NCBI GenBank assembly: GCA_963717935.1
Contig: CAVQXP010000004.1
Span: 992,001 to 1,056,000 of the forward strand
DNA length: 64,000 nucleotides
Direction: 5' to 3'
Origin: Candidatus Eiseniibacteriota bacterium
Lineage (GTDB): Bacteria > Eisenbacteria > RBG-16-71-46
Shown here: positions 7,873 to 56,231 of the stretch, piece by piece
Layout of the letters: each line of letters starts with the position of its first letter
Position numbering within the stretch: position 1 is the stretch's first letter
Notes under the pieces: generated by a model
Databases searched by the model: none
What the model saw: the letters and a program-made list of their open reading frames with translations, nothing else
What the model was told of the DNA's origin: nothing
Translations under genes and position numbers: made by a program

Positions 7873-7882
7873 GGAGCGTCTG

Positions 7883-8869: not shown

Positions 8870-10068
8870 TGCGGCGCGCGCTCGCGGTCCTGGCCCTGTT
8901 CGTCGCGGCCGGCGGGTTCGCCGGCTGCGGCGGGAACTTCGCGCTGCCCACGGAGAGCCGCGACAAGGTCATCCCCAGCGACAAGAGCTACCAGATGGTG
9001 GCCACCTGGACCGAGATGAACGGCGTCCGCGACATCCTGCTGACGCAGGGGACGGGCACGCAGCTCTTCGTGCTCTTCAACCACGGCGGCACGGGCACGG
9101 CCTCGCGCGGCGAGGTGCTGGCCTATGCGCGCCTCAAGCCCACCGGACCGCAGACACCGCTCCCGGACATCGGGTTCCAGGGGCTCTTCAACCCGGTCGC
9201 GGTGTGCGCGGGCGGCGACGGCGCGGGCCGGTCGGCCAACCGCATCTTCATCCTGGACCAGGGCGACACCACCCTGGCGCGGGTCAACCCCCTGACGCAC
9301 ATCTACGGCGACCCGACCGGGATCGGCACCCCCGAGATGGGGAAGTGGTTGCTGAACGACGTCTCCGACTTCGGCCTCTACTGCCGCGTGCGCGAGTACG
9401 GCCTGCTCGGCGGGGACACGATCAGCACCTTCATCGACACGACGATGGCCATCGTGAACGGCATCGCGGCCGACGCCCAGGGGCGCGTGTACGTCTCCGG
9501 CGCCTCGATCGTCTTCGTGCGCGACGTCCTGAATCCGGTCTTCAGGGAGCGCACGCTCCTGTGGCGCGTCAACCGCTACCTGCGCGGGCCGCGCTACCCG
9601 GGGGTCTACGACTACTTCATGCCCGGTTCCAGCTGGCACCTCGACACGACCTGGGTGGTGAACGGCGGCAGCGGCGTCGGCACGGTTCGGGACCCGCGTG
9701 GCATCTTCTGGGGGCCCTACGGCGGCGGGGCGGTCTACGCCGCGGATTTCGGCAAGAACTGGGTCCAGAAGCTGAGCGACCTCTTCCCGAGCACGGGCTT
9801 CTTCGCCATCGACCAGGCCGGTTCGGCGCTGGTCGAGCCGCTGGACGTCACGGCCGACCCGCAGGGCTTCATCTACCTCACGGACACCGGCAACCAGCGT
9901 GTCCTGCGCTTCGACGGCACGGGTGGGTTCGTCCAGAGCGTGAACGTGGAGCTGGACGCCTTCGGCCGCTCCCTGCTGAGCCCCGTCACGGTCGCGGCGG
10001 ATGACTCGCTCGTGTTCGTGGGCGACGCCGGCCTGGCCGAGGTGATCCGCTACAAGAGGCGGCCGTGA
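8869..10068 (+). CDS. NHL-repeat/beta-propeller lipoprotein
   Basis: Lipobox FAGC; repeats PRGI..VYAADFGKNWVQK, PLDVTAD..IYLTDTGNQRVLRFD, PVTVA..VFVGD; TGATG coupling to the porV-like gene. Confidence 0.75.
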   Translation: MRRALAVLALFVAAGGFAGCGGNFALPTESRDKVIPSDKSYQMVATWTEMNGVRDILLTQGTGTQLFVLFNHGGTGTASRGEVLAYARLKPTGPQTPLPDIGFQGLFNPVAVCAGGDGAGRSANRIFILDQGDTTLARVNPLTHIYGDPTGIGTPEMGKWLLNDVSDFGLYCRVREYGLLGGDTISTFIDTTMAIVNGIAADAQGRVYVSGASIVFVRDVLNPVFRERTLLWRVNRYLRGPRYPGVYDYFMPGSSWHLDTTWVVNGGSGVGTVRDPRGIFWGPYGGGAVYAADFGKNWVQKLSDLFPSTGFFAIDQAGSALVEPLDVTADPQGFIYLTDTGNQRVLRFDGTGGFVQSVNVELDAFGRSLLSPVTVAADDSLVFVGDAGLAEVIRYKRRP

Positions 10069-12119: not shown

Positions 12120-13615
12120 TGCGGCGCCTCGTCGTTGCCATCGCTCTGCTGGGCGCCCTGGCGGCGCTGCTCGCGGGCTGCGGGCCGAAGGGCACGCTGA
12201 AGCCCAACGTGCCGCCGGTGGCCAGCATCTTCATCCAGGGGCCGGTGGACACGGTCAACCACAACGTCCACCTCTACTGGTTCGGCACCGACCCCGACGG
12301 CTACGTGACGGGCTTCGACATCCGTTTCCTCAACCCGAGCGCGCCCGCCGACACGCAGTGGTCGTTCACGACCAAGACCGACTCGCTCTTCTCGATCTAC
12401 ACGCCGGCCGGATTCGCCATGCCGGCCTTCGAGGTGCGGGCCATCGACGACGGGGGCCTCAAGTCGGCCATCGCGCGCCAGGACTTCAAGTTCAGCAACC
12501 TGCCGCCCGCGGTCACGCTCCAGGACCGTTTCGGTCTCACGGACACGACCTTCGCGTCCGCCACCCTGCGATGGACGGCGAGCGACCCGGACGGGGACGG
12601 GACGAAGCTCCGCTTCCGCATCTGGCTCGACGGGGACGAGGCGAATGCCAGCCTGGCCGCGGGCTCGAGCTTCACCGTGCCGACCGCCCAGTTCCTGCAG
12701 GGCGGGCAGTTGCTCTCGGGCTACCGCCAGGCGTTCATCCAGGCAGTGGATGACGGCGGCATGCTCAGCCCGGTCGACAGCGTTCGCTGGTACGTGCGCG
12801 CCCCGGCGACGGGGGGCCACTACCCGCATTTCGGCAGGCTGCTCATCATCGACGACGTGCCCCGGCTCTTCTCCGCGAACTTCACCACGGACACGATCTA
12901 CTACAACAGCGCCGCGCGGAACCTGCTCCCCGGGGAGTACAGCATCCTCCAGATGGACTTCACGCAGCCGTTCCGCTCGGCGAAGGACCTCGAGCAGACC
13001 TTCAAGCTCTTCGACGCGGTGGTCTGGTACATCGGCGGGACGGCCGATTTCCGCACCTACGAGACCACGCTGGCGAACTACCAGGCCGGGCTCGCGGCCT
13101 ACCTGGAGGCGGGCGGCAACGTCTACCTGGACGGACAGGACCTGATCAACGGCCTGCACGCCCGCGGTCCCCTGAGCGGGGACTTCGTCTCCCAGTACCT
13201 GGGCAGCGACTTCCTGTTCCAGTACTACAGCCCGCTGGTGCAGGACTCGACCGCGGGGTGGTCGAACGCCAATCCCTCGTTCTTCGTGAGCCGCTGGGGG
13301 GACTCCCTCCGGGTGCAGCAGCTGGCCGTGGCGACCGGGTACAGCCTGGGCGGGTTCCGGGCCTTCGGGGTGAGGGACAACCAGTTCACCCTGATCAGGG
13401 CCGCTCTGGCGCCGCTGGGGTCGCTCCTGCCCTCCGGCATCCTCCCTCCGGAGGTCCCGGTCGCGGTGTCCGTGCCCCAGCCCTCGGGGGGGCGGTTCGT
13501 CCTGGTCACGTTCCCGCTGCGGGCCGCCTCCACGCCGCCCCTGACGATGCCGCAGTACTATACCGTCCACCGGTTCATGGCCAAGGTCTTCCAGGAGTTT
13601 GGCCTCGCCCCGTAA
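12116..13615 (+). CDS. Lipoprotein with Ig/Fn3-like repeats and a C-terminal alpha/beta domain, function unknown
   Basis: Lipobox LAGC; two WxxxDPDG / AxDDGG repeats; LLIIDD; ATGA overlap with the upstream gene. Confidence 0.8.
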   Translation: MMRRLVVAIALLGALAALLAGCGPKGTLKPNVPPVASIFIQGPVDTVNHNVHLYWFGTDPDGYVTGFDIRFLNPSAPADTQWSFTTKTDSLFSIYTPAGFAMPAFEVRAIDDGGLKSAIARQDFKFSNLPPAVTLQDRFGLTDTTFASATLRWTASDPDGDGTKLRFRIWLDGDEANASLAAGSSFTVPTAQFLQGGQLLSGYRQAFIQAVDDGGMLSPVDSVRWYVRAPATGGHYPHFGRLLIIDDVPRLFSANFTTDTIYYNSAARNLLPGEYSILQMDFTQPFRSAKDLEQTFKLFDAVVWYIGGTADFRTYETTLANYQAGLAAYLEAGGNVYLDGQDLINGLHARGPLSGDFVSQYLGSDFLFQYYSPLVQDSTAGWSNANPSFFVSRWGDSLRVQQLAVATGYSLGGFRAFGVRDNQFTLIRAALAPLGSLLPSGILPPEVPVAVSVPQPSGGRFVLVTFPLRAASTPPLTMPQYYTVHRFMAKVFQEFGLAP

Positions 13616-13646
13616 GTGGTTGAGTCCTGCGGTCTAGCACCCCCGG

Positions 13647-13680
13647 ACGCCCGGGCCCGCTCGAAGCGGGCTCGGGCGTT
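13647..13680 (+). terminator. Hairpin after the envelope operon
   Basis: ACGCCCGGGCCCGC-TCGAA-GCGGGCTCGGGCGT stem with one G-U pair; weak T tail. Confidence 0.55.
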
Positions 13681-13694
13681 ACTCGTTTATCCGC

Positions 13695-13723
13695 TTGGGA
13701 CTTAGCCCCAGTCCTGCTACAGT
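13695..13723 (+). promoter_or_regulatory. Putative extended -10 sigma70 promoter
   Basis: TTGGGA-17bp-TACAGT with TGn immediately before the -10. Confidence 0.4.
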
Positions 13724-13876
13724 TACCGCGGTCTAGGTTCGTCTCGTTCCCCGCTTTCGCGGTTCCTCGGACCGCTTAAGACTCCGGCTTGGCCGCAGGG
13801 AGGTTAACGCCCGAGTTATATCCTGTCCCCCGACCTGCTCCGTTCGGACGTCCTGCTCAACAAGGGGTGTGACATC

Positions 13877-15883
13877 ATGACTAAGGCTGCAACCTGGATT
13901 CTCAGCGCACTGCTTCTCACCGCCCTCGTGGCGATGCCGGCTCTGGCGGGGCAGTATCCGCCGACCTGCGCGGACTCGATCAGCATCTGGAACATCCAGA
14001 ACCCCGCGGCGCCCTGTCATCCGGTCGACACGGACACCGTCTGGGTCGGCATCGGTGGCGTCGTCACGGCGCTCGACACCAAGACCTCGGGCGTGGGCTT
14101 CTACATGCAGCTCTCGGGCGGGGGCCCCTACACCGGCATCAACGTGTTCACCGCGAACACGATCTGGCCCGTCGCAGTGGGCGACAGCGTCATCGTCCGG
14201 CCCTCCAAGGTGACGGAGTACGGCGGCGAGACGGAGATCGCCGCGCTCGACGGCTCCTTCGGCGCCAACCTCAAGGTCTACAAGGTCCTCGGTCCGACCG
14301 CCCTCCCGCCGTTCTACGAGGGGACCACGACCGACTTCAACACCCTGGCGACCAATACCGCCCTCGAGCCGTACGAATGCGGCCTCGGCAAGGTCCTTCC
14401 GCGCGGCGGGCCGCTGCGCGTGGCCCGGGTCTACTACGCCGCGTTCTCGGTGGTGGACAGCGCGTGCACGAGCGGTATCTGCGACTCCGTGTACGTGAAC
14501 ATCACCACGCTCCCGAACCCCAGCCTCGGCGTGCCGCCGCTCAACACCACGCTCTCGTACGTCCAGGGCATCGTGAGCCAGAGTGCCGCCGGCTACGCGA
14601 TCAAGATGCGGGACGACAACGACTGGTATCCCTCGGTGAATCCGCCGGTGGTCGCGGACGCCTACGCGATCAAGGACGACAGCGTCCGCGTCGTCTTCGA
14701 CAAGCAGGTGACCCAGGCGAGCGCCGAGGACGCGAGCAACTACTCGCTGGCGACGTTCGGGGCGACCGTGAACTCGGCCACCCTCGAGCCCAACGGCTCG
14801 TGCGTGATGCTCAACATCACGAACGGTCTCGGCCACGGCGTCAAGGAGACGGTGAACGTCAGCGGCGTGGTGGCCGTGGTCAACGGCAAGGCCATGGTGG
14901 GCATCATGTCGAGGACCTTCTGGAATGGCCTCACGCCCATCGCGGACATCCAGGCGCCGGACCCCGCGAGCCTGCTGGCGGACCCCTGCCTGGATCGCTC
15001 GCTCTTCGCGGGCCTGGGCTCTGCAGCCGGCGCCGAGAAGGTCACGTACCGCGGAGTCTGCACGGCCGCCTTCCCCGGAGGCCTCTACTACGTGCAGGAC
15101 GCCTCGAGCCCGACGCGCGCCGGCCTGGCCACCTACGCGCCGATCATCCCGCTGGTCGTGGGGCGCCAGTACCTGCTGGTCGCCAACATCCAGGAGTACT
15201 ACGAGGAGACCGAGTCGCTGTACAACGTGTACGTGCGCGACGAGGGCGTGGCGACCCCGCCGACCCCGGTCGTCCAGACCGCCGCCGTGCTGCGTGACGC
15301 GACCTGCGATGCCTCCCAGTCCATCACCAACGGAGAGGACTACGAGGGCATGCTGGTCCGGATGAACTGGGTGATGTCGCTCGCCGACACCACCGTGCCC
15401 GGCTACGGCTTCGACGTGGCCGATCCTCCGTATTCCGCCTACACGGACTCGATCCACATCCGCAACGTGCAGTCCAGCGCGGGCTGGACCTACGCGGCCG
15501 TCCCGGACATGCTCCTGGACGTCACCGGCATCCTGACCTACAGCTTCGCCACGATGCAGGTGGCACCGCGCTTCGACTCCGACTTCGTGGATCACGGGGC
15601 GCTCGACGTGCCGCCGGGGACGCTCTCGAAGGTCTCCTTCTCGGCCTACCCGAACCCGGCCCGCGTCACCAAGGTGAGCTTCGCGCTTCCGAAGCAGTCC
15701 GTCGTGGACCTCTCGGTGTACGACCTGTCGGGCCGCAAGGTCGCCTCGCTTGCCAGCGGTTCCATGCCCGCGGGACAGTACACGCGTGACTGGGACGGCG
15801 GCGGCGCCGGTGCGGGCGTCTACTTCGTCCGCCTCCGGGTCGATTCGGAGACCTACAACATCCGCACCGTCAGCCTGAAGTAG
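13877..15883 (+). CDS. Secreted protein with tandem YhcR-like OB-folds, an Ig-like domain and a T9SS/FlgD-like CTD
   Basis: Signal peptide; GFYMQ..GINVF..VGDSV..VTEYGGETEI and YYVQD..IQEYYEETE..EDYEGMLV; CTD YPNP..VYDLSGRKV..WDG..GVYFVRL. Confidence 0.75.
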   Translation: MTKAATWILSALLLTALVAMPALAGQYPPTCADSISIWNIQNPAAPCHPVDTDTVWVGIGGVVTALDTKTSGVGFYMQLSGGGPYTGINVFTANTIWPVAVGDSVIVRPSKVTEYGGETEIAALDGSFGANLKVYKVLGPTALPPFYEGTTTDFNTLATNTALEPYECGLGKVLPRGGPLRVARVYYAAFSVVDSACTSGICDSVYVNITTLPNPSLGVPPLNTTLSYVQGIVSQSAAGYAIKMRDDNDWYPSVNPPVVADAYAIKDDSVRVVFDKQVTQASAEDASNYSLATFGATVNSATLEPNGSCVMLNITNGLGHGVKETVNVSGVVAVVNGKAMVGIMSRTFWNGLTPIADIQAPDPASLLADPCLDRSLFAGLGSAAGAEKVTYRGVCTAAFPGGLYYVQDASSPTRAGLATYAPIIPLVVGRQYLLVANIQEYYEETESLYNVYVRDEGVATPPTPVVQTAAVLRDATCDASQSITNGEDYEGMLVRMNWVMSLADTTVPGYGFDVADPPYSAYTDSIHIRNVQSSAGWTYAAVPDMLLDVTGILTYSFATMQVAPRFDSDFVDHGALDVPPGTLSKVSFSAYPNPARVTKVSFALPKQSVVDLSVYDLSGRKVASLASGSMPAGQYTRDWDGGGAGAGVYFVRLRVDSETYNIRTVSLK

Positions 15884-31648: not shown

Positions 31649-34012
31649 CTACGACGTCTGCGGCTGGTGCCGGTCGAGGGCCTCGCGCAGCTTCTGCGCG
31701 ACCTGCTGGATGCGATAGGGCTTGGCCACGAAGCTCATCGCGCCCGCCGCCACCCACGAGGACTGGCTCTCCACCGTGGCGTAGCCGCTCGCGATGACGA
31801 CCGGCAGGCCCGGCATCAGCTTCCGCACCTCGCGCAGGACACTCTCGCCCGAGATGCCCGGCAGGGTCAGGTCAAGGAGCATCACGTCCACGTGTGGCTC
31901 TCCCTGGCGGAGGATCTCGAGCGCCTGTTCCCCGGTCTCCACCGCCAGCACGTCGAAGCCGTGAAGTTGCAGGCCGGTGCGCGCCAGGGCCCGCAGACCC
32001 GGTTCGTCATCCACGACCAGCACGGTCTCGTGGCCGTGGGCGGTCGCCGCGGCGGGCACCAGCAGCGGCGCCTCCTCGGCCGTGTCCACCGGGAAGACCG
32101 CGCGGAAGGCGGCTTCGCCGGGCCCGGTCGCGGTGACGAGCCAGCCCCCGTGCGCCCGGACGATGTCCTCCACGATGGTGAGCGTGAGCCCGGCCCGGTC
32201 GGGCGACGGCTCCACCGCGCGTCGGGCCGGGCTGCCCGGCGTGGTGCGCAGCTCCAGGGCGACGGCATGGCGCGGCTCGCCCGCGCCGCGCGTCTCCTCG
32301 GGCGGGCGCGGCTGCTCGACCAGGCGTGTCACGAGCGTGAGCGTGCCGCCGGCGCCGATCCGCTCGCGCGCCTCCTGGACGAGATTGACGAGCACCTGCT
32401 GCAGGAGCAGCGAATCGCCGAGCAGCAGCGGCAGGTCGGGCTCCAGGCGCAGCGCCAGGGACGTGGACGGGTCGAGCGCGCTGCGCAGCACCTGGTAGGC
32501 GTCCTCGACCACGCGGTTCAGGTGCAGGGGCAGTCGCTCGAAGCGGGCGTTGCGGCTGAAGTCCAGCAGTGCCTGGGTGAGGCGCGAGGCCCGCTCCGCG
32601 GCCCCCACGATCTGGACCGCCGGCTCGTGCCGCGGATCGGGCTCGGGGGTCTGCTCGAGCAACAGGGCGCCGAAGCCGAGGATGGTGCCGAGCAGGTTGT
32701 TGAAATCGTGCGCGACCCCGCCGGCGAGCCGGCCCATGCTCTCCATCTTCTGCGCCTGCGTGAGGCGGCGCTGCATCACCCAGCTCGCGGTGATGTCCTC
32801 CGCCGTGAGGACGCGGCCCACCACGGCGCCGTGCGCGTCCCGCAGCGGGCCGGCGTAGGTGCGCAGCACGCGCAGGGGCTCGCGCAGCTCGGCGACGTAC
32901 TCCTCGGCCTGCTCGCTGGTGAGGCGGGGGACGGACTCGCCGGCCACGCCGCCCTGCAGGATCCGCCGCAGGTCGGGCGTGGTCCTCGCCAGCGGCGTGC
33001 CGGGCCGGATGGGCTCGTCGAGCCGGAGCATCTCGGCCAGGCGACGGTTGCACAGCGCGACCTCCGCCCGTCCGCGCCGCAGGCGCGCCACCAGCACGCC
33101 CGTGGGGCTCGCGTCGAGGATGTGCTTCAGGTGGGCGCGCGACTCGGCCAGTTCCTGCTGGAGCGCGTCGCTCGCTCTCAGGTCCTCGATGAACCCGTGC
33201 GCGCGGTCGGCCCAGGTCTGCTCGCCGCGCACCGGGACCACGTGGTTCACCAGGTGGGGCAGGTCACTCCGGTCGCGGTGCACGCCGGTGAAATGGATGT
33301 CGAAGGGCCTGCCGGTGGCGACGCCGGCGCGGAACTCGGCGCGCACGCGCTCCTGGTCGCCCGGATGCACCAGTTCGTCCCACGCTCCGTGCTGCTGCAG
33401 CAACCCCGCGGGCTGGTGCCCGAAGAGCTGCTCGACCGCCGGGCTCACCTCGAGCAGGCGCTCCTCGGGCAGCGCCAGGGTCCAGGCCACGCCCGGCAGC
33501 ACCTCGGCCGCCGCGCGATGCAGGTCCTCGACCGCGCGCAGGGCGGCGCGCGCGCGCAGCGTGGCGGTGGTGTCCTGCAGGTGCAGGAGCACGCGTCCAT
33601 GCGACAGGCGCAGCGCCTCGACGTGGCACTGGAGGGGCTGGCCCTCGATGTCCGTCACCGTGACCTCGTCGCGCACCACGTTGGTGGTGCCGTGCAGTCG
33701 CTGGGGCACGCTCGCGCCGCCAAGCACGCGGGCCAGCAGCGTCGACTCGAGCACCGAGCGGCCCTGCAGCCGCCCGTCGGGCACGTGCAGCAGGCGGTCC
33801 GCGGCGGCATTGGCCATCAGGACGGTGAAGTCGGGCCCGAAGAGGATCATCGGGTCCGCGGTGGCCTCGAAGAAGGGCGTGAGCCCGGGGTCCGCCGGGG
33901 GCGGTCCGCCCCCGCTCTCGCCGGGGGAGGGATGGCGCGCGGACGCGAGCCCGATGATCAGGGGATGCGAGGCGAGGAAGTGGAAGATGGTCTGCAGACC
34001 GATGAACCTCAT
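31649..34012 (-). CDS. Multi-PAS hybrid sensor kinase/receiver with degenerate HATPase domain
   Basis: PAS-like repeats (W..LVHPGDQE), H-box [11 protein letters not shown], receiver VVDDE..LLDLTLP..KPY; start uncertain. Confidence 0.85.
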
Positions 34013-34290
34013 GACGAGCCTCGAGGGTGCCGCAACCGTCGAGTGCGAGTCGGAACGAGGCTGATGCTTCCACCTGCGGAGAGCAGGGTCAAGGTGGGCC
34101 ACGAGCCCGCGCGGAACGCGCTCGGAACGGGCCGGTCCCGGGGCGGCGACGGACCCGCACGCGCCTGCCTGAGGGTTCCCACGCGCACCTCCTCCGTAGG
34201 ACTGCGGACGCTGCTCTCCTCATCGGTACGGACTCCACTCTTCCGATGTGACTCTTCTCGCTTTGGACCGCGCCAAATGCACTTCTTTCC

Positions 34291-34319
34291 TTGACGCGCA
34301 TCCGACCGCTGCCTAGTGT
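34291..34319 (+). promoter_or_regulatory. Putative sigma70 promoter
   Basis: TTGACG-17bp-TAGTGT. Confidence 0.45.
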
Positions 34320-34350
34320 GCGCCATCCGCGAACGGAGCGACCCTTCCGG

Positions 34351-34458
34351 ATGATTCCCCGCGACGCACCCCGGTCGAAACGCATCCGCGCGCTGGGCCT
34401 GCCTTCCGGAGGCCTCGACAGCGCGCTGGCTGCCGCGCTGCTGCTCGAGCAGGGGCAT
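34351..34458 (+). pseudogene. N-terminal remnant of a PP-loop (ThiI/MnmA-like) ATPase
   Basis: RIRALGLPSGGLDSALAAALLLEQG, after which similarity stops. Confidence 0.6.
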
Positions 34459-34560
34459 CCGGGTCCGGGGGGTGGGCGGTTCCGCCGCAACTCCCGTGGC
34501 GCCGGCCGCGCTCTGACGCGCGGCGGTCGCGGGTCGTGTCGCACCAGGAGGCTGCGTCCC

Positions 34561-36768
34561 ATGCGTCGCTACGATTTCATCGGAACCCCGCGGTCCCGCC
34601 GTGCGGCCCCGGCCGCGTGGCTGGCGGCGGGCCTGGCACTCGCGGCCGTGGCCCCGGTGCTGGCCGCCGAGGCGAAGCCGCGCTCGGCGTTCGCCGACAC
34701 GACGAAACCGGTGCTGTTCCTCCAGGAGACCGTGGTCACGGGCGCGCGCTACCCGCGCGTCTACTTCGAGTCGCCGCAGTCGCTCTCGTTCGTCAGCCGG
34801 CAGATGCTGCGCGAGCAGACGCCCCTCGTGCTCGGTGACGTGCTGGCCGCGCTCCCGGGCGTGGACAGCAACAAGGACAGCCCCTGGGAGCAGCGTCCGT
34901 CGGTCCGCGGGCTCACCGGCCAGCGCGTGCTCGTGCTGGTGGACGGCAGCCCGATGAACAGCGTGCGCGGCAACGGCCCGCATCCGTCGCTCCTCGACCC
35001 CACGCAGGTGGAGCGCATCGAGGTCGTGCGGGGCCCGTCATCGGTGGCGTACGGCTCCGACGCCCTCGGCGGCGTGATCAACATCATCACCCGTGAGCCC
35101 CGCTTCCTCGGGGCCAGTGAGGTCCTGCACGGCTCCGCCAGCCTCGGGGGCAGCGTCAGCGGTCTGCCCGAGCGGAACGGCTCGCTGGAGTTCTCGACCC
35201 GCGTGCGGAAGCTCTCCGGGTTCTTCTCGGGCAGCGGGCGCAAGTCCGACGATTTCCGGAACGCGGACGGCACGGTCCCGCACTCGAGCTTCAGCGACTG
35301 GAACGCATTCGCCAACCTGCGCTACGACCTGACCGAGCGCCTCGCGCTGAAGGGCGGCTACCAGCTCTACCGCGCCAGCAAGGTCGGCATCCCGGGACTG
35401 GACGTCGCCGTGCCGGGATACTCACAGACCTTCCAGTTCAAGCACTACGACCGTGACTTCGCCCACCTGACGCTCGATCATCAGTACACCGAGTCCTCCT
35501 GGCTGGCGAGCACGCGCATCAAGACCTACTGGCAGCGGGAGCACCGCAACTTCTACTCGGACATCGGCGTCACGATCCCGATGGGGCCGGGGGTGAACGG
35601 ACAGCTGACCCTCCTGAAGGACCGCATCCTGGACCTCGACACGTACGGCCTGCAGGTACAGATGACGTCCTGGAAGACCGCGCTCTTCCGGTTCAGCACC
35701 GGCGTCGATGCCTCGCGGGACATGACGGGCGGGACCAACCTCGAGCTGCAGAGGCTGGAGACTCCCTTCGGGGACTCCGAATCGCTGATCACGTCCGCTT
35801 CGGTGCCGACCGGGCGCTTCGACAACTATGCCGGTTTCCTGCAGGGCGAGTTCTTCCTCGCGCCGCGATGGACCGTCAACGCCGGCGGGCGATACACGCA
35901 CTATCGCTACCGCACCGACTACACGCTCATGCAGCCGGACTTCTACTTCCAGCCACGCAGCCGCGATGACGATGCGCTCTCGGGCTCGCTGGGCCTGGTC
36001 TACAACCCGATCGCGGACCTGCACCTCACGGCGAACGTGGCGAACGGCTACCGCGAGCCCAACGCGCAGGATCTCTTCTTCAGCGGACCGGGCTCGGTGG
36101 GCTTCGTGCTGGGAAACCCGGACCTCAAGCCCGAGCGCAGCGTGTCCTACGACGTCGGGCTGCGCTGGGGGCCGGGCACGCTGGCCATCTCGGGCAACCT
36201 GTTCTACTCGACGTTCAAGGACCTCATCAATGCGTTGCCCTGCCATCCGGCGCCGGCCGAGGCGATGGGCGACAGCGCCTACCGCTACGTGAACATCGCG
36301 ACGGCCACGATGTGGGGCGGTGAGGCCGAGGCGGAGTGGCGCTTCCACCCGCGGTGGACGGCGCGCGCCGGGATGGCGGGCACGGTGGGGGACATCACGA
36401 ACCGGGCGGCGATCCTCGAGGTCTACGGCATCAGCGCCGACCGGGTCCCGCTGGAGCTGGTGCCGCCGTTCCGGGGCTCGGCCTCGCTGCGCTGGACCGG
36501 GCCCGCCCGCCGCCTCTGGGCCGAGGCGGGTGCGCGCTACTCGTGGCGGACGAACCGGCTGCCGCCGGTCACGCCCGGGGCGGAGCAGCTCACCGCCTTC
36601 AAGAAGGAATGGATCGTCGGCGACCTGTCCGCCGGGACCCGGCTGGAGACCGGCCAGAGCCTCGTGCTGGGCGTGCGGAACTTCACCGACCGCCGCTACC
36701 GGCAGCCGCTGGGCTCGGTGGTTGAGCCGGGCGCGACGTACTACGTCTCGCTGAGCAGCGACTTCTAG
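34561..36768 (+). CDS. TonB-dependent receptor (heme/B12/siderophore class)
   Basis: TonB box ETVVTG, PSVRGL..VLVLVDG, ERIEVVRGPSSVAYGSDALGGVINIIT, YREP..NPDLKPE, terminal F. Confidence 0.92.
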   Translation: MRRYDFIGTPRSRRAAPAAWLAAGLALAAVAPVLAAEAKPRSAFADTTKPVLFLQETVVTGARYPRVYFESPQSLSFVSRQMLREQTPLVLGDVLAALPGVDSNKDSPWEQRPSVRGLTGQRVLVLVDGSPMNSVRGNGPHPSLLDPTQVERIEVVRGPSSVAYGSDALGGVINIITREPRFLGASEVLHGSASLGGSVSGLPERNGSLEFSTRVRKLSGFFSGSGRKSDDFRNADGTVPHSSFSDWNAFANLRYDLTERLALKGGYQLYRASKVGIPGLDVAVPGYSQTFQFKHYDRDFAHLTLDHQYTESSWLASTRIKTYWQREHRNFYSDIGVTIPMGPGVNGQLTLLKDRILDLDTYGLQVQMTSWKTALFRFSTGVDASRDMTGGTNLELQRLETPFGDSESLITSASVPTGRFDNYAGFLQGEFFLAPRWTVNAGGRYTHYRYRTDYTLMQPDFYFQPRSRDDDALSGSLGLVYNPIADLHLTANVANGYREPNAQDLFFSGPGSVGFVLGNPDLKPERSVSYDVGLRWGPGTLAISGNLFYSTFKDLINALPCHPAPAEAMGDSAYRYVNIATATMWGGEAEAEWRFHPRWTARAGMAGTVGDITNRAAILEVYGISADRVPLELVPPFRGSASLRWTGPARRLWAEAGARYSWRTNRLPPVTPGAEQLTAFKKEWIVGDLSAGTRLETGQSLVLGVRNFTDRRYRQPLGSVVEPGATYYVSLSSDF

Positions 36769-36862: not shown

Positions 36863-37915
36863 CTACCGCCTGAGCCCCGCACCGCTCATGGCCCGCTGCA
36901 CGTGGGCGGCCGTCAGGCCCGGCTGGGTCGGGCCCTGGATGTACTCGATCGCGGACCGCAACAGTCCCACGATGTACTTCGGGTTGTGGACGCCGTGGCT
37001 GCGGTCCTCCTTGGCCAGCAGCAGGTTCCACACCGCGCCCGCCGAGTCGGCCGAGGTCTTCACCGACTGCGGCGCGCCGTCCGCCATGAGGTTCGCGGCC
37101 ACGAGGCGCGCCTCGAGATCCGTGATCAGGACGTCCACGCTGTCCTGGGAGAAGTCGTCTCCGACCTGGCTGAAGTCGGAGATCTCGCCGTGGCACTTCG
37201 CGCAGGCCGCGGTGTTGAGGATCTCGGCCTCCCCCTCGCCCCACGCCATGTTGAACGAATGCCCACCGACGACGTTCTGGCTCGTCGTCCTCATGTGACA
37301 GTCGAGGCACCCGTCGACCGTCGCCGAACGGTGGTTCGACCGCTCGTAGGTGTAGCCGGCGTACTCGTAGCCGTTCGAACCGATCAGCATGTCGCCCTGC
37401 GGACCGTGGTGCGGGCCGAAGCGGCTGGTCAGCGTCGTCTGTGCGGTGACGTACGTGCTGACGTTGCGCCGCGACTGGTGACAGGCCACGCAGAGATTGG
37501 CGGCCTTCAGGTCGTACGTCGCGCCATTCTGGAGCGTCGCCACGGCCGTCCAGCGAAGCGCGAAGTCACCGTTGGTGTGCGGCGCGTGGCAGGTGAAGCA
37601 GTGGATCGACGTCGGATTCTCGATCTCGCTGGGAGCCGTCGTCCCGGTCGCCCTTGCCACGAAGCCTTCGCTCGTGTGGCAGCCCTTGCACTCGCCGTCG
37701 TTCTCGTTGAGGGTCTCGCCCGTCGCGTGCTTCGAGTGCTCCCACTGCTGGGTCGCGGCCACCAGGAAGGTGTTGGCGTCACCGTGACACTCGAAACAGC
37801 TCTGCGGCCCCGCCACCACCTGTTCGACGCGCGTGATATTGCGCGAGCAGGCCGCGAGCGCGAGGCCCACTGCGGCGCTGACCACGAGCGCCAGGATCCT
37901 CTTGAACACCACCAT
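36863..37915 (-). CDS. Hexaheme c-type cytochrome lipoprotein
   Basis: Lipobox LAAC; CFECH, CKGCH, CFTCH, CVACH, CLDCH, CAKCH; C-terminal DRSHGVHNPKY. Confidence 0.92.
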   Translation of the reverse strand: MVVFKRILALVVSAAVGLALAACSRNITRVEQVVAGPQSCFECHGDANTFLVAATQQWEHSKHATGETLNENDGECKGCHTSEGFVARATGTTAPSEIENPTSIHCFTCHAPHTNGDFALRWTAVATLQNGATYDLKAANLCVACHQSRRNVSTYVTAQTTLTSRFGPHHGPQGDMLIGSNGYEYAGYTYERSNHRSATVDGCLDCHMRTTSQNVVGGHSFNMAWGEGEAEILNTAACAKCHGEISDFSQVGDDFSQDSVDVLITDLEARLVAANLMADGAPQSVKTSADSAGAVWNLLLAKEDRSHGVHNPKYIVGLLRSAIEYIQGPTQPGLTAAHVQRAMSGAGLRR

Positions 37916-37957
37916 CAGCGTATCCTCCTCGGTAGGGCATTCGACGTACTTCGCAGG

Positions 37958-39517
37958 CTACTTCAGGTGCAGGTCGTATCCGACGTCGATCCGCAGCACG
38001 TTCGCGGTGTAGTAGCGATCCAGCAGGATGTAGTCGTCGTAGTTGTAGGCGTTGTACCGGATCTCGATGTGGTAGTCGTTCGACAGGGTATAGGTGCCCT
38101 CCAGGAACACGATCGACTTCTCGATGTCCAGGTCCCCGCGGACATCCACGTAGGTCGCGCCGCCCGCGAGATGCAGATTCGTGATCCGGTCGAACTCGAT
38201 CCGGCCCGTCACGAACTGGCTCTCGGTGTGGAAGCCGCCCGCGCGGTCCACGTAGTCGTCGGTCGAGAAGCTGTAATCCCCCGAAACGGCTCCCCAGCCC
38301 TCGCGGTCGTACCGGCCGAAGGCGGTCGCGACCTCTCCGTCGACCGAGACGGCGATGTCGGGAAACTCGCGCTCGCGCCTCGAGTAGCCGCCACCCAGGA
38401 CGACGCCGTCGCGGGGCCGCACCTGGAGCCTCGCGCGGATCTGGGAGGCCTCGACGTCCTTGAGGAGGGTCAACTCCTCCTGGTCCTGCTTGACGCGGCT
38501 CGCGTAGTCGACCCTGGCGTTCACGGATCTCCCGTAGCGAAACGCCGTCCCGACGCGCCAGTCTTCGTAGCGGGTGAGTGTCCGGTCGTCGTCGTTGGTC
38601 TCGTAGCCGTAGCTGCCGCTGACCTGGCCGTACCTGTAGAACCAGGTCGCGTCGAGGTCGTTCTGGAACCGGTCGGTCTTGAGCCGCGTCGACCTGTCGT
38701 CGACGCGGTTCGCGTCGAAGCGGTAGCGGAGCTGGAAGGCGTCGACCGGCTGGAGGGTCCCGGCGTACTGGAAGTTCGCCAGCGTGTATTCGAGGTCCGT
38801 GCCGGACAGCCTGCGACTGCCGTAGGCCGCGCGCAGCAGGTGGGTCCACTTGTCGTAGAACGCGCAGGGCGTGTAGAGCCTGGCCGACACGACCTGCCCC
38901 GTGCGGTTCGCCGCCGGATCGAGCTCGTCGGTGTAGCCGGAGGCGCGATAGCTGATCGCCCCGCCCCTCCGATCCTTGTGGACGTCCGCCGTCACCTCGC
39001 CGCTCTTGAGGGCGTTGTCGTAGCGCGTCCCGAGCACGCTCCCCGTGCCGGAGGGGAACGGCAGGCGGTTCCCGTCGCGCGTCAGGGAGTTGAAGGCCCC
39101 GGAGAGTCCCAGCCAGCGGACCGGAGTGAAGCGGGCTCCCGCCTTCCAGTCCACGCGCCGGGCGTTGACGCCGCCTTCGGGGGAGAAGATCTGCCGGTGC
39201 TGGTCGAGGCCCGCCGTGAGCTTGAACGTGCCCGGCACGCGGTAGACGAGATCGCCCTGGCGCGCGTCCTGGTTGATGTCCCGCAGGTCGAGCGCGAAGT
39301 AGTGGCGGGGATCGAAGGTGCCGTTCAGGCGGATCTGGGCGAGGGAGAACCCGTCGTGGACGTCGTAGGTCTCCTGGACGGCGGTGCGGTCTCCTGCCTC
39401 GTTCATGATGATGCCGCCCAGCTTCACCGTGCCGTCGAGCGTCCCCGCCGAGGGTGCGGACGCGGCGAGCGTGACGACGAGCGTGACGCAGGCGGCCGTG
39501 ATCGTCGTCGTTCGCAT
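37958..39517 (-). CDS. MtrB/PioB-like outer-membrane beta-barrel porin
   Basis: Signal peptide, alternating Tyr/Gly-rich strands, no plug domain, located between two multiheme cytochromes. Confidence 0.75.
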   Translation of the reverse strand: MRTTTITAACVTLVVTLAASAPSAGTLDGTVKLGGIIMNEAGDRTAVQETYDVHDGFSLAQIRLNGTFDPRHYFALDLRDINQDARQGDLVYRVPGTFKLTAGLDQHRQIFSPEGGVNARRVDWKAGARFTPVRWLGLSGAFNSLTRDGNRLPFPSGTGSVLGTRYDNALKSGEVTADVHKDRRGGAISYRASGYTDELDPAANRTGQVVSARLYTPCAFYDKWTHLLRAAYGSRRLSGTDLEYTLANFQYAGTLQPVDAFQLRYRFDANRVDDRSTRLKTDRFQNDLDATWFYRYGQVSGSYGYETNDDDRTLTRYEDWRVGTAFRYGRSVNARVDYASRVKQDQEELTLLKDVEASQIRARLQVRPRDGVVLGGGYSRREREFPDIAVSVDGEVATAFGRYDREGWGAVSGDYSFSTDDYVDRAGGFHTESQFVTGRIEFDRITNLHLAGGATYVDVRGDLDIEKSIVFLEGTYTLSNDYHIEIRYNAYNYDDYILLDRYYTANVLRIDVGYDLHLK

Positions 39518-39529
39518 TCGGGCACCGTC

Positions 39530-40495
39530 CTAGAACTTGTGGCAGCCGACGTTGAAGCAGCCCTGGCCCCGAAGCGACTCGCTCAGGAACAGGCGGCTGG
39601 TGTACGAGCCGTGGATGTCCGTGTGGCAGCCGTTGCACGGCACGCCCGCCCATCTCGTCCCGTGCATCGGGTTCGAGTCGTGGCGGGGGACCGAATGGCA
39701 CTGCGTGCACAGCTGGAAACGGGGCGCTTCGTAGGGCTGCTTGAGCATCCTCGGCAGGTGCGAGCCGTGTGGTTCGTGACATGTCATGCACCCGCCCTCC
39801 TCCGTCGAGTAGTCGACGGTCGCCGGGTGCTCGAACGGGAACGGTCCCTCGAATTCGCCGTGGCACTTCATGCAGACGTTCGTGCCGTTCGACGCCAGCG
39901 GGCGTCGCGTGGCGTCGAGGGTCAGGTGGCACTCGCTGCACTTGACGATGCCGTCCTTCACCGGGTGGTGGTACGACCTGGCGAACTGGCCCTCGACGTC
40001 CCTGTGGCACCCGAGACACAGACCACTCTCGGCTTGCCGAAGGAGCGCCGGATGCTTCGACGCGTGGACGCGGTGGCACGCGCTGCAGTTGACGTCATTC
40101 GTCGCATGGACGTTCTTCTCGAGCATGTTCTGCTGGTGCGCGCTCTGGTGGCACGCCGAGCACAGGCGCGCCTCGGCGGCGGCGCTGGCCCCGGCCGGAC
40201 GGGTCATGGCGTACGCGCCCGGGTCCTCCTCCCAGTGACGGCGGTCACCGGCGTGGCAATCCGTGCAGGCGATGCGTGCACCGGGGCCATCGAGCCCGTC
40301 GCCGGGCAGCCGGTGCCCGGTCGTGGCGAGAGTCGTGTCCTGGCCGGTGTGACAGTCGAGGCACACCTTGCTCACGCGGGGGTTGTCCCGCGCGAGCGAC
40401 TCGCCCCCGGGTGCGAAGCACAGCGCGCCCAGCAGTGAGCACGCGAGCAGAGACGGGAACACGCAGCGGGAGGGGATCCTGTCGGAGACGGGCAA
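39530..40495 (-). CDS. MtrA/DmsE-family multiheme cytochrome c (10 CxxCH plus 1 CxxxxCH)
   Basis: CLDCH, CTDCH, CSACH twice, CLGCH, CSECH, CMKCH, CMTCH, CTQCH, CNGCH; GPFPFEHP, HTDIHGS; terminal CFNVGCH; TTG start after GGAGGGAG. Confidence 0.92.
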   Translation of the reverse strand: MPVSDRIPSRCVFPSLLACSLLGALCFAPGGESLARDNPRVSKVCLDCHTGQDTTLATTGHRLPGDGLDGPGARIACTDCHAGDRRHWEEDPGAYAMTRPAGASAAAEARLCSACHQSAHQQNMLEKNVHATNDVNCSACHRVHASKHPALLRQAESGLCLGCHRDVEGQFARSYHHPVKDGIVKCSECHLTLDATRRPLASNGTNVCMKCHGEFEGPFPFEHPATVDYSTEEGGCMTCHEPHGSHLPRMLKQPYEAPRFQLCTQCHSVPRHDSNPMHGTRWAGVPCNGCHTDIHGSYTSRLFLSESLRGQGCFNVGCHKF

Positions 40496-40683
40496 CGCGA
40501 CTCCCTCCGGAAGAGGGGTGAGGACGAAGGCCTCCCCGTCGCGGCGCCGGGAGCGGTGCGTCGCCGCCGCCGGGTGCGCGGCAGCGGATGACCCGGCAGG
40601 GCCGCGATCGTGCGTGAAGGATGGAAGAGGCATGAGTCTCGGAATGCCTTCCAGGGCACCAGGAACGCGGCCAGACGGAAGTC

Positions 40684-40729
40684 AGGATACTGAAAAGCCA
40701 CCGGGGTGTCTACGTAATAACACGTATAC
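40684..40729 (-). promoter_or_regulatory. Sigma70 promoter with an overlapping palindromic operator for the cytochrome operon
   Basis: Minus strand TAGACA-17bp-TATCCT; palindrome GTCTACGT-N6-ACGTATAC at 40708-40729. Confidence 0.55.
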
Positions 40730-53034: not shown

Positions 53035-53688
53035 GTGCACTTCCTCGATGCCTGGGTGGCGTTGCCGCCCCTCGACCTCTTGCGCCTCGCCGCTCCCGCC
53101 GCACTGCTGCTGATCGCGGTGCTGGTGCCCGGCCGCGTGACGGCACGGCTCGCCACGCTGGGCCTGGCGGTCTCGCTCCCGTTCCTGCGTGAATCGGGCG
53201 CCTCCGCCTGGGTCACCGCGGGCTGGGTGCTGCTCTGGCTCGCGATCGCCTGGCAGGCGGGACTGCCCTCGAAGCGCACGGCGCGCTCCGGCGCGCGGTG
53301 GGGGGAGATCGAGTCGGGCGCGGTGGGGCTGCTGCTCGGGTCGGCGTTGCTGGCGCTGCTCATCGCGGGGGTGGCGCGGCTCGACCTCGACGCCGCCCCG
53401 ACGCGGCAGTGTTCCCTTGGCGTGCTGCTCGTCAGCCTTGGTTTCCTGCACCTCATGCTGCGGCGCCATGCCGTGCGCGCCGCCACCGCCTTTGCGGCGA
53501 TGGGGCTCGGCCTGCAGCTGCTGCAGGCCGCCGTGCGCACGGTCGTGACGACCGGCGGCGAAGCCCTCGATGGACTGCCGCTCCTCGCCACCGCGCTGGC
53601 CGTGGTGGTGGCGGTGCGCATCGGCGCGGCGCGCGTCACCACGGCCGGCTCGGCGTGGGTGAGCGATGCCCACGACCTGCATGACTGA
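53035..53688 (+). CDS. Membrane protein, remotely NuoK/MrpC/HyfE-like
   Basis: About 7 hydrophobic segments; LGFLHLMLRRHAVR resembles the NuoK GxxGxLxRRN motif. Confidence 0.55.
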   Translation: MHFLDAWVALPPLDLLRLAAPAALLLIAVLVPGRVTARLATLGLAVSLPFLRESGASAWVTAGWVLLWLAIAWQAGLPSKRTARSGARWGEIESGAVGLLLGSALLALLIAGVARLDLDAAPTRQCSLGVLLVSLGFLHLMLRRHAVRAATAFAAMGLGLQLLQAAVRTVVTTGGEALDGLPLLATALAVVVAVRIGAARVTTAGSAWVSDAHDLHD

Positions 53689-53691
53689 GCC

Positions 53692-55026
53692 ATGCGCTTC
53701 CTGAGCCACCTGGTCCCCGGACCCCGCCCCGTCGGCGGACTGCTGTGCGCGGCCGGTCTCGCGCTCGTCGTCCTGCCCGCGCGTTTCGCCCCGGCGCTCG
53801 GGGTCGAGCTGCTCGCGGCCGGGTTCTGGTGGTGGGCCCGCGCCAGCGACGAGCCCGCGTTCCAGGTGCCCCGCTGGAGCTGGCTGCGCCGCCCCGCGAC
53901 CGCGCTGTGGCTGGCGGCGGCCATCGAGGTGGCACTGCCCGGGCCCGCCGCCGGCCTCCCGGTGCCGCCCGCCACGCTCGCGTTCTGGTCGCGGGTCGAA
54001 GCCATCGCGATCGTCTGGGCGGCGCTCGAACTGCTGGCGGCGCTGCCGCTGGCGCGACCGTTCTCGGACCTGCCGGGCCCGCTCATCGCGCACGGCGCAT
54101 GGCTGCCGGCGCTGCTGCCCGCGGCGGGATTCGTGCTGCTCTGGCGCCTGGCGCCGCGCTGGCTGGACGTGGACGACGTGCGCGAAGCAGCCGCGGTCCT
54201 GCTGCTGCTCACGGCGGCGTTGGCCGCGCTGCGGGCCTACGGGCGGCGGCGCTGGACCGCCGGGTTGCGCTGGCTGGTGGTCTTCGACAGCGCGCTGGCG
54301 GGCGTGCTCCTGTCGAGCGGTGCGGTCCCGCCCTGGATCGTGGTGGTGCTCTGGAGCGGCGCTTTCGGCACGCACGCCTACCTGCTGGCCGCGGAGCTCG
54401 GGGGGGCGACCCCGCGCCGCGGCCCGGTGATGGCGATGCTGTGGCGCACGACATCGTGGATCTCGACCGCGGCACTGGGCTGGCCGCTGCTCGCCGCCGC
54501 GGGCAACCTGAGCCCGCGCCGCGCCGTCCTCACGCTGGTCTGCGGCGGCATCCCGATCGCGCTCGCTTCGTGGGTGAACGTGGCTCGCCTGGTCGAGGCC
54601 CCCGAGCGCCGCGCGCTCGCCCGGCCGATCTTGTGGCTCACCCCGAGCCGCATGGCCCCGGCCGTACTGCTCTCGGGCGTGCCCCTGGCGCTGGCGAGCG
54701 CGTGGTGGGTGGGCTTCGCGCCGAGCTGGCTCTTCGCCCTGCTCGCGCTGGTGCCCGCGTTCGTGGGCGGATCGCTCGGCCTGCTCGCCGTGCGTCCCGC
54801 CGAGGCCGGCCGCGGGGCGCGCGCGGGTCAGATCGCCCAGCATGTCGCGCGCCGCCTGTTCCGCCTCGTGGTCGGTCTCGAGCGCGCGCTGGTCTCGGGA
54901 GCGGTGCGCCTGGCGCGGGTGCTCGCCACCCCGCTGCGCGACCTGCACACCGGTGACGCGCAGGAGTACGTACTCTTCCTCGTCGGGGTGGCCGTGCTCG
55001 CCATCCTGTTGCCCCTGCTGCGATGA
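53692..55026 (+). CDS. Polytopic membrane protein with a NuoL/MrpA-like C-terminus
   Basis: Long amphipathic helix, then LRDLHTGDAQEY and a final TM. Confidence 0.6.
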   Translation: MRFLSHLVPGPRPVGGLLCAAGLALVVLPARFAPALGVELLAAGFWWWARASDEPAFQVPRWSWLRRPATALWLAAAIEVALPGPAAGLPVPPATLAFWSRVEAIAIVWAALELLAALPLARPFSDLPGPLIAHGAWLPALLPAAGFVLLWRLAPRWLDVDDVREAAAVLLLLTAALAALRAYGRRRWTAGLRWLVVFDSALAGVLLSSGAVPPWIVVVLWSGAFGTHAYLLAAELGGATPRRGPVMAMLWRTTSWISTAALGWPLLAAAGNLSPRRAVLTLVCGGIPIALASWVNVARLVEAPERRALARPILWLTPSRMAPAVLLSGVPLALASAWWVGFAPSWLFALLALVPAFVGGSLGLLAVRPAEAGRGARAGQIAQHVARRLFRLVVGLERALVSGAVRLARVLATPLRDLHTGDAQEYVLFLVGVAVLAILLPLLR

Positions 55027-56231
55027 GCGCGCGCGCCCTGCTCGGAGATCCCGCCCTGCCCGTGGCGCTTGCGTTGGTCGCGGCCCTGCTCCTGGTCGCG
55101 TCCGAGCGTCGGCGGCGCCCGCTCTTCGGCTCGCTGGGCCTGCTGCTCGCGCTCGTGCCCTGCGCGCTGGTGCTCGCGCGGCTCGAAGCGGTCGGCTGGG
55201 CCCTGGCACCGCTGGTGGCCGCGCTCGTCGCCGCCGCGCTCGCCCGCGAGCGCCCGGACCCGCTTCCCGGCGAGTGCGCGCTCAAGCTGGTCTGGGTGCT
55301 GGGTGGTGCCTTCGCCCTCACCGCCGTGGGGCTCGCGCTGCTGACGCTCGCCACCGGCGTGACCGCGCCGCTCGAACAGTGGAGTGTCCTGCAGCTGGGC
55401 CTCTCGCAGCGCATGGTGTGGGCGGTGGCGCTGCCGCTCACACTGCTCGCGGGCGTGGTGCTGCTGGGGGGGGCGCCGTTCCACTTCTGGGTGGCCGACC
55501 TGCTCCAGGGCGCGCCCTCCGCGCTCGCGCCGCTGGCGGTCGCGGTCCTGCAGGGCCTGGGCGCGATGTGGCTGGTCCGGCGTCTCGAGGGCGTCGAGGT
55601 GTTCGGGGGCGGTGCCGTGCTGGCGGGCACTCTGCTGCGCACCGCCGCGATCGCCGCGTTCCTCGCCGGCGCGGGGACGCTCCTGTCGCAGCGCCGGCCC
55701 GAGCGGCGCGTGGGCACCCTCGCGAGCCTGCAGGGCGGGCTCGCGCTGGCCGCGCTCGCCGTCGCCGTGGGGCGCGGCCAGCGCGACGCGATGGTCTCCG
55801 CCTGGCTCGTGCCCTGGGCCGCGCACCTGGCGCTGGCGCTCTCCGGTGCGACGTTGCTCGCGCGGCTCACCCCCGCAGACCCGGTGGCGGGCGCGCCCGG
55901 AGGCCACCTGTTCCGGCGCCATCCGCTGAGCGCGTTCGCCGGCCTCTATGCGCTCCTTTCGCTGGCCGGCGCGCCGGGGACCCCGGGGGCGGGCCTCTGG
56001 CTCGAGATCGCGCGCGGGCTCGCGGCGAGTGGCAGGAACGGGCTCCTCATCGCGCTCGCTCTCGGCTGGCTCGCGGCCTTCGCCACCGTGATGCGCGAGC
56101 TGCGCGAGGGTTTCGGCGCGCCCACGGCGGTGCGGCCCGAGCGCAACGTGCCCATGCCGATGCGCGCCGCGCTCTGGGTGAGTGGCGCGGGGCTGGCCGT
56201 GCTGGGAGCAGCGGGGCTGGTACTGCGGTAG
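55023..56231 (+). CDS. Degenerate NuoN/MrpD-like antiporter-fold protein
   Basis: ECALK, APFHFWVADLLQGAP, LLSLAGAPGTPG; ATGA overlap. Confidence 0.72.
   Translation: MSARALLGDPALPVALALVAALLLVASERRRRPLFGSLGLLLALVPCALVLARLEAVGWALAPLVAALVAAALARERPDPLPGECALKLVWVLGGAFALTAVGLALLTLATGVTAPLEQWSVLQLGLSQRMVWAVALPLTLLAGVVLLGGAPFHFWVADLLQGAPSALAPLAVAVLQGLGAMWLVRRLEGVEVFGGGAVLAGTLLRTAAIAAFLAGAGTLLSQRRPERRVGTLASLQGGLALAALAVAVGRGQRDAMVSAWLVPWAAHLALALSGATLLARLTPADPVAGAPGGHLFRRHPLSAFAGLYALLSLAGAPGTPGAGLWLEIARGLAASGRNGLLIALALGWLAAFATVMRELREGFGAPTAVRPERNVPMPMRAALWVSGAGLAVLGAAGLVLR

Follow-up and report, generated by a model that had tools for sequence, protein, structure and literature searches.

A probable compact MtrAB-type porin-cytochrome conduit with an OcwA-like hexaheme lipoprotein partner in Candidatus Eisenbacteria and other candidate phyla

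Respiration of minerals and electrodes by Gram-negative bacteria relies on porin-cytochrome conduits, of which the MtrCAB complex of Shewanella is, to our knowledge, the only one whose structure has been solved. Surface reductases of the OcwA/NrfA lineage were known before in Gram-positive organisms. In the Shewanella complex, MtrB is described as a barrel of 26 antiparallel strands with surface loops reaching about 45 Å; on the outside of the cell, it leaves heme A10 and MtrA residues 284-306 accessible to MtrC (PMC7198977). A count of 26 strands is likewise predicted for PioB and MtoB (PMC10654088), and an outer multiheme partner, which PioAB and MtoAB are stated to lack, is reported to mark mineral reducers (PMC6344600). 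OcwA of Thermincola potens (6I5B) is described as a nine-heme terminal reductase of the cell surface, built on the NrfA plan and having a C-terminal three-helix bundle (PMC6703420, 10.1101/2022.02.24.481543). We have analyzed three adjacent genes, here named A, B and C, located in a 64,000-nucleotide stretch (the window) of contig CAVQXP010000004.1 from a Candidatus Eiseniibacteriota bacterium, an uncultured inhabitant of soil or sediment, and consider it probable that they encode a compact porin-cytochrome conduit of the MtrAB type provided with an OcwA-like partner.

The genes are three successive open reading frames (ORFs) on the minus strand, at positions 36863-40633 of a window with about 71% G+C, and their G+C content at third codon positions (GC3) of 0.89-0.94 is at the level expected of real genes. 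With spacers of 12 nt between A and B and 42 nt between B and C, they form a tight operon in the order A-B-C, whereas the Shewanella order is mtrC-A-B. Heme motifs are found in A and C, which together carry 16 CxxCH plus one atypical Cx4CH, exactly as the original prediction had counted them for a three-gene cluster, and are absent from B. A six-frame scan of the window (stop-to-stop segments of at least 80 amino acids) evidences CxxCH only in the ORFs of A and C, so that the clustering of heme motifs is not due to chance. The locus resembles MtrCAB (6R2Q) in having three components, these being a homologue of MtrA, an MtrB-like predicted barrel and a multiheme lipoprotein.

As judged by its sequence, A is a clear homologue of MtrA over all ten hemes, in agreement with what had been proposed for the first gene. 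It matches the NCBIfam model of the DmsE/MtrA decaheme family (TIGR03508) with E 3.2e-48 over profile positions 3-257 of 258, and the sole strong match among PDB sequences is MtrA itself (6r2q_A, for which the molecule name given by the depositor in the PDB table is evidently wrong), with E 6.2e-23 for the single sequence and E 3.5e-40 for a 27-sequence profile. All ten CxxCH motifs are invariant in this alignment and so are ten histidines outside the motifs, as expected for ten bis-histidine hemes. In PioAB and MtoAB, too, a decaheme of the family of A is followed by the gene of a barrel with 26 predicted strands (PMC10654088).

The case for B comes from its predicted fold. The AlphaFold2 model has a mean predicted local distance difference test score (pLDDT) of 84.0 and a predicted template modelling score (pTM) of 0.73, and comprises 26 strands following a signal helix, with no plug or N-terminal domain and no gap between strands above 14 residues. 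When the model is compared with the PDB using Foldseek, the best match is MtrB (6r2q_B, E 1.7e-15, template modelling score (TM) 0.77) and the second is LptD (E 5.7e-8, TM 0.50). According to the model, B is a 26-stranded outer-membrane barrel of the MtrB type, which bears out the role first proposed for the middle gene and speaks against the refuting case named with that proposal, a middle gene that is no barrel. Its proposed shortness is confirmed as well, B having 519 amino acids against the 649 residues of the MtrB chain in 6r2q (Foldseek table) and being much shorter than the PioAB and MtoAB barrels, which have about 800 amino acids. Since the modelled strands are 26 as in MtrB, PioB and MtoB, while the gaps do not exceed 14 residues, the compactness of B would result from lost loops and not from fewer strands. 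In the model, the loop joining strands 1 and 2 has a short helix, as described for MtrB, whereas the long extracellular loops reported for that protein are missing (PMC7198977). A profile search with B over 1.84 billion representatives yielded 181 clusters at E ≤0.001, and the full-length relatives among the best 150 of the 181 measure 504-557 amino acids, none being longer; the family is tight and separate. PF11854 (MtrB_PioB) is weakly matched by 8 of 25 B homologues, with a best E of 3.1e-7.

A different picture emerges for C, whose six predicted hemes within 350 amino acids and likeness to OcwA and NrfA set it apart from MtrC, a four-domain decaheme. In an alignment of 25 homologues with 56-84% identity to C, the putative lipid-bearing C23 is invariant, as are R25, T28 and the six CxxCH motifs. 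Six further histidines (63, 113, 169, 195, 219 and 310) are also invariant, a number consistent with all six hemes being bis-histidine coordinated, and CxxCK is not found in C. A strict lipobox pattern flagged 44 of the 58 C homologues listed, and by eye all 58 show a small residue and then a cysteine after a hydrophobic stretch. The C profile matches OcwA among PDB sequences (6i5b_A, E 4.4e-6, residues 201-331 of C on 379-498 of OcwA) and, further down, NrfA entries at 6.3e-4 and 9.9e-4, whereas with the single sequence nothing significant is retrieved from the PDB (OmcS 0.013, NrfA about 0.04-0.06). The DRSHGVHN stretch of C, in which D304, R305, S306, G308, H310 and N311 are invariant, aligns with DGSNGVHN of 6i5b_A and with the equivalent stretch of NrfA. 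C would thus share with OcwA the D-x-S-x-G-V-H-N stretch and a helical bundle. OcwA differs in that it has nine hemes, two of them five-coordinate, and belongs to a Gram-positive organism without porin, and C in that it has six hemes, six spare invariant histidines, a predicted lipid anchor and a barrel partner. C has no match to TIGR03507, the OmcA/MtrC family, in NCBIfam, and its Pfam matches are generic multiheme ones only: a partial match to MtrC-MtrF_II-IV (31.0 bits, cutoff 30, covering positions 75-168 of the 176 in the profile) and one to Cytochrom_C552 (26.5 bits, cutoff 24.1). These comparisons place C in the OcwA/NrfA lineage rather than in the MtrC/OmcA lineage, as a putative hexaheme lipoprotein, and the NrfA-like tail that had been ascribed to it is recovered. 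The segment following the lipid cysteine, C-[SDET]-R-x-[IV]-T-x-V-E, is conserved across phyla among the 58 homologues listed, its C-[SDET]-R-x-[IV]-T part from Eisenbacteria to Ignavibacteriales, and might be a sorting signal or a barrel contact.

The named homologues are all 'hypothetical protein' entries from metagenome-assembled genomes (MAGs) of Candidatus Eisenbacteria, the nearest relatives, in keeping with the uncultured lineage that had been supposed. By scanning one genome per species we have obtained 66 loci (L001-L066), labelled by their submitters as Eisenbacteria, Krumholzibacteria, Latescibacteria, Zixibacteria and Ignavibacteriales, with a few in bins labelled Gemmatimonadota, Fibrobacteraceae, Vicinamibacterales or Hyphomicrobiales and others in unclassified bins. 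As determined by tblastn, the gene directly upstream of B is an A homologue in every one of the 58 loci offering 900 bp or more for it; downstream, a C homologue is present in 56 of the 60 loci that leave 1000 bp or more (the exceptions being L024, L032, L061 and L065), and both flank B in 49 of 52. Conservation of the module extends over several candidate phyla. Six CxxCH motifs are present in 51 of the 56 C homologues whose 3' end is complete and five in three others, while those of L063 and L064 have 13-14 hemes, the C-like module forming their C-terminal half. In L061 and L065 the C position is taken by 16-heme proteins. These variations indicate that the outer partner varies while A and B stay.

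The tail of A constitutes a further difference from MtrCAB, in addition to B having no significant sequence match to MtrB. The alignment of MtrA to A stops at a conserved HGS, leaving the last ~25 residues of A (ending G-C-F-N-V-G-C-H-K-F) without counterpart, and none is found either in the canonical MtrA-type protein of an Eisenbacteria MAG, whose chain terminates directly behind HGS...LFL. The extra Cx4CH in this tail, whose C313, C318 and H319 are invariant across 27 A sequences, is a conserved C-terminal feature of the whole family: in a census of 62 A homologues whose genes directly precede that of a B homologue, 61 have a Cys-Xn-Cys-His at their end, the spacing n being 4 in 55, 2 (a canonical CxxCH) in three (L058, L059 and L062), 1 in two and 6 in one. 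The motif is missing from L050, in which A and B are both broken; in this Krumholzibacteria MAG (L050:7146-9568) the A and B matches are each split in two, in different frames, corresponding to pseudogenes or to assembly frameshifts. In another locus (L038:3087-7946) the frame holding the A homologue is open to 1619 amino acids upstream, being either a fusion or a mere G+C-rich open frame.

A Cx4CH is known as a heme c attachment motif in tetraheme cytochrome c3, and the canonical CxxCH of the three relatives argues for an 11th heme on A. We are inclined to believe that the motif binds such a heme, the alternative being a disulfide-stapled tail that presents a histidine. Two observations count against the heme. 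The two relatives with CxCH display a spacing not known to us to bind heme via both cysteines, and A has only ten invariant histidines outside its motifs in the 27 sequences and B no invariant histidine or methionine, which leaves no candidate for the sixth (distal) ligand of an 11th heme.

The Geobacter clusters OmaB-OmbB-OmcB, ExtABCD and others also combine a periplasmic multiheme cytochrome, a porin-like barrel and an outer lipoprotein multiheme cytochrome whose heme count is other than ten (PMC4245776, PMC6148476), but they are stated to be non-homologous to Mtr (PMC6344600), whereas A is a true MtrA homologue. For Zixibacteria RBG-1, a co-located MtrA-like decaheme and MtrB-like porin have been described (Castelle et al. 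2013, PMC3903129). The Zixibacteria loci L058-L065 belong to the A-B-C family, and the RBG-1 pair is probably the same module as that described here; in the passages of that report consulted, no mention is made of a short barrel, of a hexaheme lipoprotein or of the C-terminal motif, and its supplementary figures might show the cluster. The Uet cluster of Tenderiales, which also pairs an undecaheme with a hexaheme, was considered and rejected as a match, its reported architecture being different: the barrel has 28 strands, the undecaheme is extracellular, and the hexaheme is periplasmic and encoded elsewhere in the genome (10.1101/2022.05.06.490989).

A number of results weigh against a conduit of this kind. 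The score of A, 164.4 bits, is under the curated TIGR03508 cutoff of 192.2. B itself has no family match in Pfam or NCBIfam, PF11854 and TIGR03509 included, its 25-sequence profile retrieves no PDB sequence even at E 10, and when its family is aligned by hhalign to a canonical 738-amino-acid MtrB/PioB protein from an Eisenbacteria MAG, the probability is 41.6% over 86 columns; the kinship of B and MtrB rests, with such weak matches, mainly on the predicted fold. The AlphaFold2 model of C is poor (mean pLDDT 46.9) and its fold is not usable, only helices 257-273, 289-303 and 312-327 having pLDDT above about 64, although low pLDDT is usual for heme-free models of multiheme proteins. A Pfam scan of 33 GC3-selected ORFs of the window revealed neither a quinol dehydrogenase nor any gene for cytochrome c maturation, and the window does not contain the quinol-oxidising entry point. 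Finally, the 66 loci all come from MAGs, with no cultured member and hence no physiology to lean on. Regarding the TIGRFAM models proposed as a check along with the original prediction, A matches TIGR03508 below its cutoff, and B and C have no match to the MtrB and MtrC families (TIGR03509 and TIGR03507).

In the mechanism that we favour, B would sheathe A across the outer membrane, and A would form a chain of ten bis-histidine hemes that runs, as the solved Mtr complex suggests by analogy, from a periplasmic N-terminus to a surface-exposed C-terminus. The conserved tail of A, with its probable 11th heme, would be found at the loop-poor outer mouth of B, where the lipid-anchored C would most likely dock, passing electrons to acceptors that are insoluble or large, for instance Fe(III) or Mn(IV) minerals or humic substances. 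The outward orientation of the C-terminus, the position of the tail and the docking of C are all modelled on the contact between MtrA and MtrC in 6R2Q. As a best guess electron flow would be outward, the family being reversible in principle; this is suggested by the outer multiheme partner and by reducer-type neighbours in relatives (L031, L020, L009, L011 and L047). Tentatively, and with less than even confidence, we further propose a distinct, lineage-wide conduit of the group of Eisenbacteria, Krumholzibacteria, Latescibacteria and Zixibacteria, made of a loop-less 26-strand barrel and an undecaheme wire, in which the tail with the 11th heme replaces the MtrB loops and the MtrC docking surface and plugs into an OcwA-type surface cytochrome. 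In that arrangement, the conserved C-x-R-x-I-T segment behind the lipid anchor of C may insert into the barrel or run along it, and in this way bring C to the surface.

The same conduit could also operate inward, as PioAB and MtoAB do, and feed the respiratory chain with electrons taken from reduced minerals, humics or Fe(II) outside the cell. MtrA, PioA and MtoA are one family, whose common model A matches, and direction is not readable from sequence. The CymA/NapC-like, CbcL-like and giant multiheme neighbours of some relatives are reducer-typical and speak against uptake, though CymA-type proteins occur in the Mto cluster too. Iron-oxidation and iron-reduction markers are reported together in MAGs of Eisenbacteria, Krumholzibacteriota and Zixibacteria (PMC9769843, PMC8478452), a point in favour of uptake, yet 56 of 60 loci have a C homologue after B, and it would be precisely the outer multiheme partner that PioAB and MtoAB are said not to have (PMC6344600). 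For these reasons, we hold inward flow to be rather unlikely.

Alternatively, C could reside on the inner leaflet of the outer membrane and feed the N-terminal heme of A, whose tail would then be the exposed end of a two-component, MtoAB-like conduit. The lipobox alone is silent on the leaflet, and many C homologues have Asp or Glu at position +2; no surface-lipoprotein secretion system was identified near the operon (33 window ORFs, Pfam), and the extra C-terminal motif of A could be a terminal site. Nevertheless, OcwA, the nearest solved relative of the C tail, is described as a terminal reductase of the cell surface (PMC6703420), and the 13- to 16-heme proteins at the C position in Zixibacteria suit extracellular wires better than a periplasmic adaptor, which renders this arrangement unlikely in comparison with a surface location of C.

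It is highly improbable that C is instead a catalytic reductase of the NrfA/OcwA type acting on a small molecule (nitrite, hydroxylamine) and fed by A and B as DmsEF feeds DmsAB. Such activity would fit the Cytochrom_C552 score above cutoff, the profile matches to NrfA and OcwA, and the reported reduction of nitrite and hydroxylamine by OcwA in vitro (PMC6703420), but C has no CxxCK, its six invariant non-motif histidines fit all-bis-histidine hemes, and the likeness is limited to the C-terminal helical region, with weak E-values for NrfA. Finally, that the three genes are simply neighbours, B being an ordinary porin or transporter and the cytochromes periplasmic carriers, can be given hardly any weight, because, even though B has no family match and the fold search also retrieves LptD and TonB receptors of similar size at E around 1e-7, the gene order is kept across phyla (A in 58/58 loci, C in 56/60), MtrB leads that search by 7 orders of magnitude with the higher TM, and the 26-strand model has neither plug nor N-terminal domain.

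The features of the locus are collected in Table 1. The longest ORF of A is 39530..40633, and the TTG at 40495 was chosen as its start on account of the GGAGGGAG with a 5-nt spacer upstream and of the homologues aligning from that residue; this start coincides with the end coordinate 40495 of the original prediction. A strong GAGGAGGA is also found upstream of C, and a terminator scan yielded nothing above chance.

Table 1. Positions, in window coordinates, of the genes and sequence features of the A-B-C locus
Feature	Position	Strand	Remarks
Gene A, MtrA/DmsE-like multiheme cytochrome, periplasmic or barrel-inserted, 321 aa	39530..40495	-	10 CxxCH and C-terminal Cx4CH
Predicted Sec signal peptide of A	40391..40495	-	MPVSDRIPSR / hydrophobic core / GGESLA, then RDNP; by inspection
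CFNVGCH, Cys313-X4-Cys318-His319 of A, candidate 11th heme site	39539..39559	-	on a ~25-residue tail absent from MtrA
Gene B, predicted outer-membrane beta-barrel, 519 aa, MtrB-like fold	37958..39517	-	predicted 26 strands, short loops
Gene C, putative hexaheme lipoprotein, 350 aa	36863..37915	-	6 CxxCH, lipobox Cys23
Lipobox Cys23 of C, LALAAC/SRNITRVE	37847..37849	-	C23 invariant in 25 sequences
DRSHGVHN, residues 304-311 of C	36983..37006	-	C-terminal helical region; shared with OcwA and NrfA
Shine-Dalgarno-like GGAGGGAG	40501..40508	-	5 nt 5' of the TTG of A; read from sequence
Sigma-70-like promoter match	40684..40712	-	upstream of A; 1 site against 0.2 expected, 9/12 matches; weak evidence

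In some relatives, the conduit has likely upstream components as neighbours. In a Krumholzibacteriia MAG, the genes directly upstream of A-B-C (L031:5613-6992) encode an octaheme of the NrfB/DmsE kind and a tetraheme assigned to the NapC/NirT family (E 5e-66, below cutoff), and this cluster would be a complete membrane-to-surface chain. Another locus (L020:4227-6857) has a 19-heme protein whose C-terminal part is a cytochrome b domain of the formate-dehydrogenase-gamma type. We take this fusion to be built like CbcL of Geobacter, and it is a candidate inner-membrane quinol oxidoreductase. A similar ORF of 873 amino acids and 19 hemes is found at L028:10652-13273. NrfH-like membrane hexahemes are present in L019 and L024, and in three loci of the Eisenbacteria type (L009:4195-6732, L011:3556-6756 and L047:3201-6365) the gene of a giant cytochrome, with 35-42 CxxCH, is situated just upstream of the conduit. 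In an Eisenbacteria MAG (L004:11035-14184), the compact A-B-C cluster is immediately followed by a second pair, consisting of a DmsE/MtrA decaheme (255 bits, above cutoff) and a 738-amino-acid MtrB/PioB barrel (213 bits, cutoff 240), which indicates that compact and canonical conduit types coexist in one genome.

Within the window, the convergent gene of a TonB-dependent receptor (34291-36768) and that of a hybrid histidine kinase (31649-34102) were considered as parts of the system and rejected, as neither is conserved beyond L001 and L003, the two closest relatives. Further away, two ORFs with a 4-nt overlap (5078-7872) together resemble a TonB-dependent receptor, the first having CarboxypepD_reg and Plug domains and the second an OMP_b-brl_3 barrel, and represent a split gene or a frameshift. 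The adjacent region (7862-15883) encodes a PorV-like or UPF0164 outer-membrane protein, an NHL-repeat protein and then three ORFs of 600-680 amino acids without Pfam match, and may be a neighbourhood of type IX secretion cargo. The highest G+C of the window, 0.769, is reached at 53035-56231, where three ORFs have no Pfam match, with an AT skew of -0.445 at 54001-56000.

In the literature searched we have found no description of the compact barrel, of an OcwA-like hexaheme lipoprotein partner or of the C-terminal motif of A. Surveys based on FeGenie are reported to list iron-cycling genes in Eisenbacteria and allies (PMC8478452, PMC9769843), and a survey of MtrCAB distribution has zero occurrences of five of six taxon terms for these phyla (PMC8805035). 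The arrangement proposed here would keep MtrA and its 26-strand sheath, strip the loops, add a probable 11th heme and swap MtrC for a cytochrome of the OcwA/NrfA lineage; if true, the outer partner of a conduit would be shown to be interchangeable. A barrel smaller by roughly 25% would also become available to structural studies and to attempts at moving conduits into other hosts. As B escapes the MtrB/PioB models of Pfam and NCBIfam, marker surveys based on models of this kind may undercount electroactivity in Eisenbacteria, Krumholzibacteria, Latescibacteria and Zixibacteria. Altogether, the results suggest a capacity for electron exchange with minerals in several candidate phyla about which little is known, and, should the undecaheme wire prove true, abundant uncultured phyla of soils and sediments would be electroactive by means of a module that marker-gene tools only half recognise.

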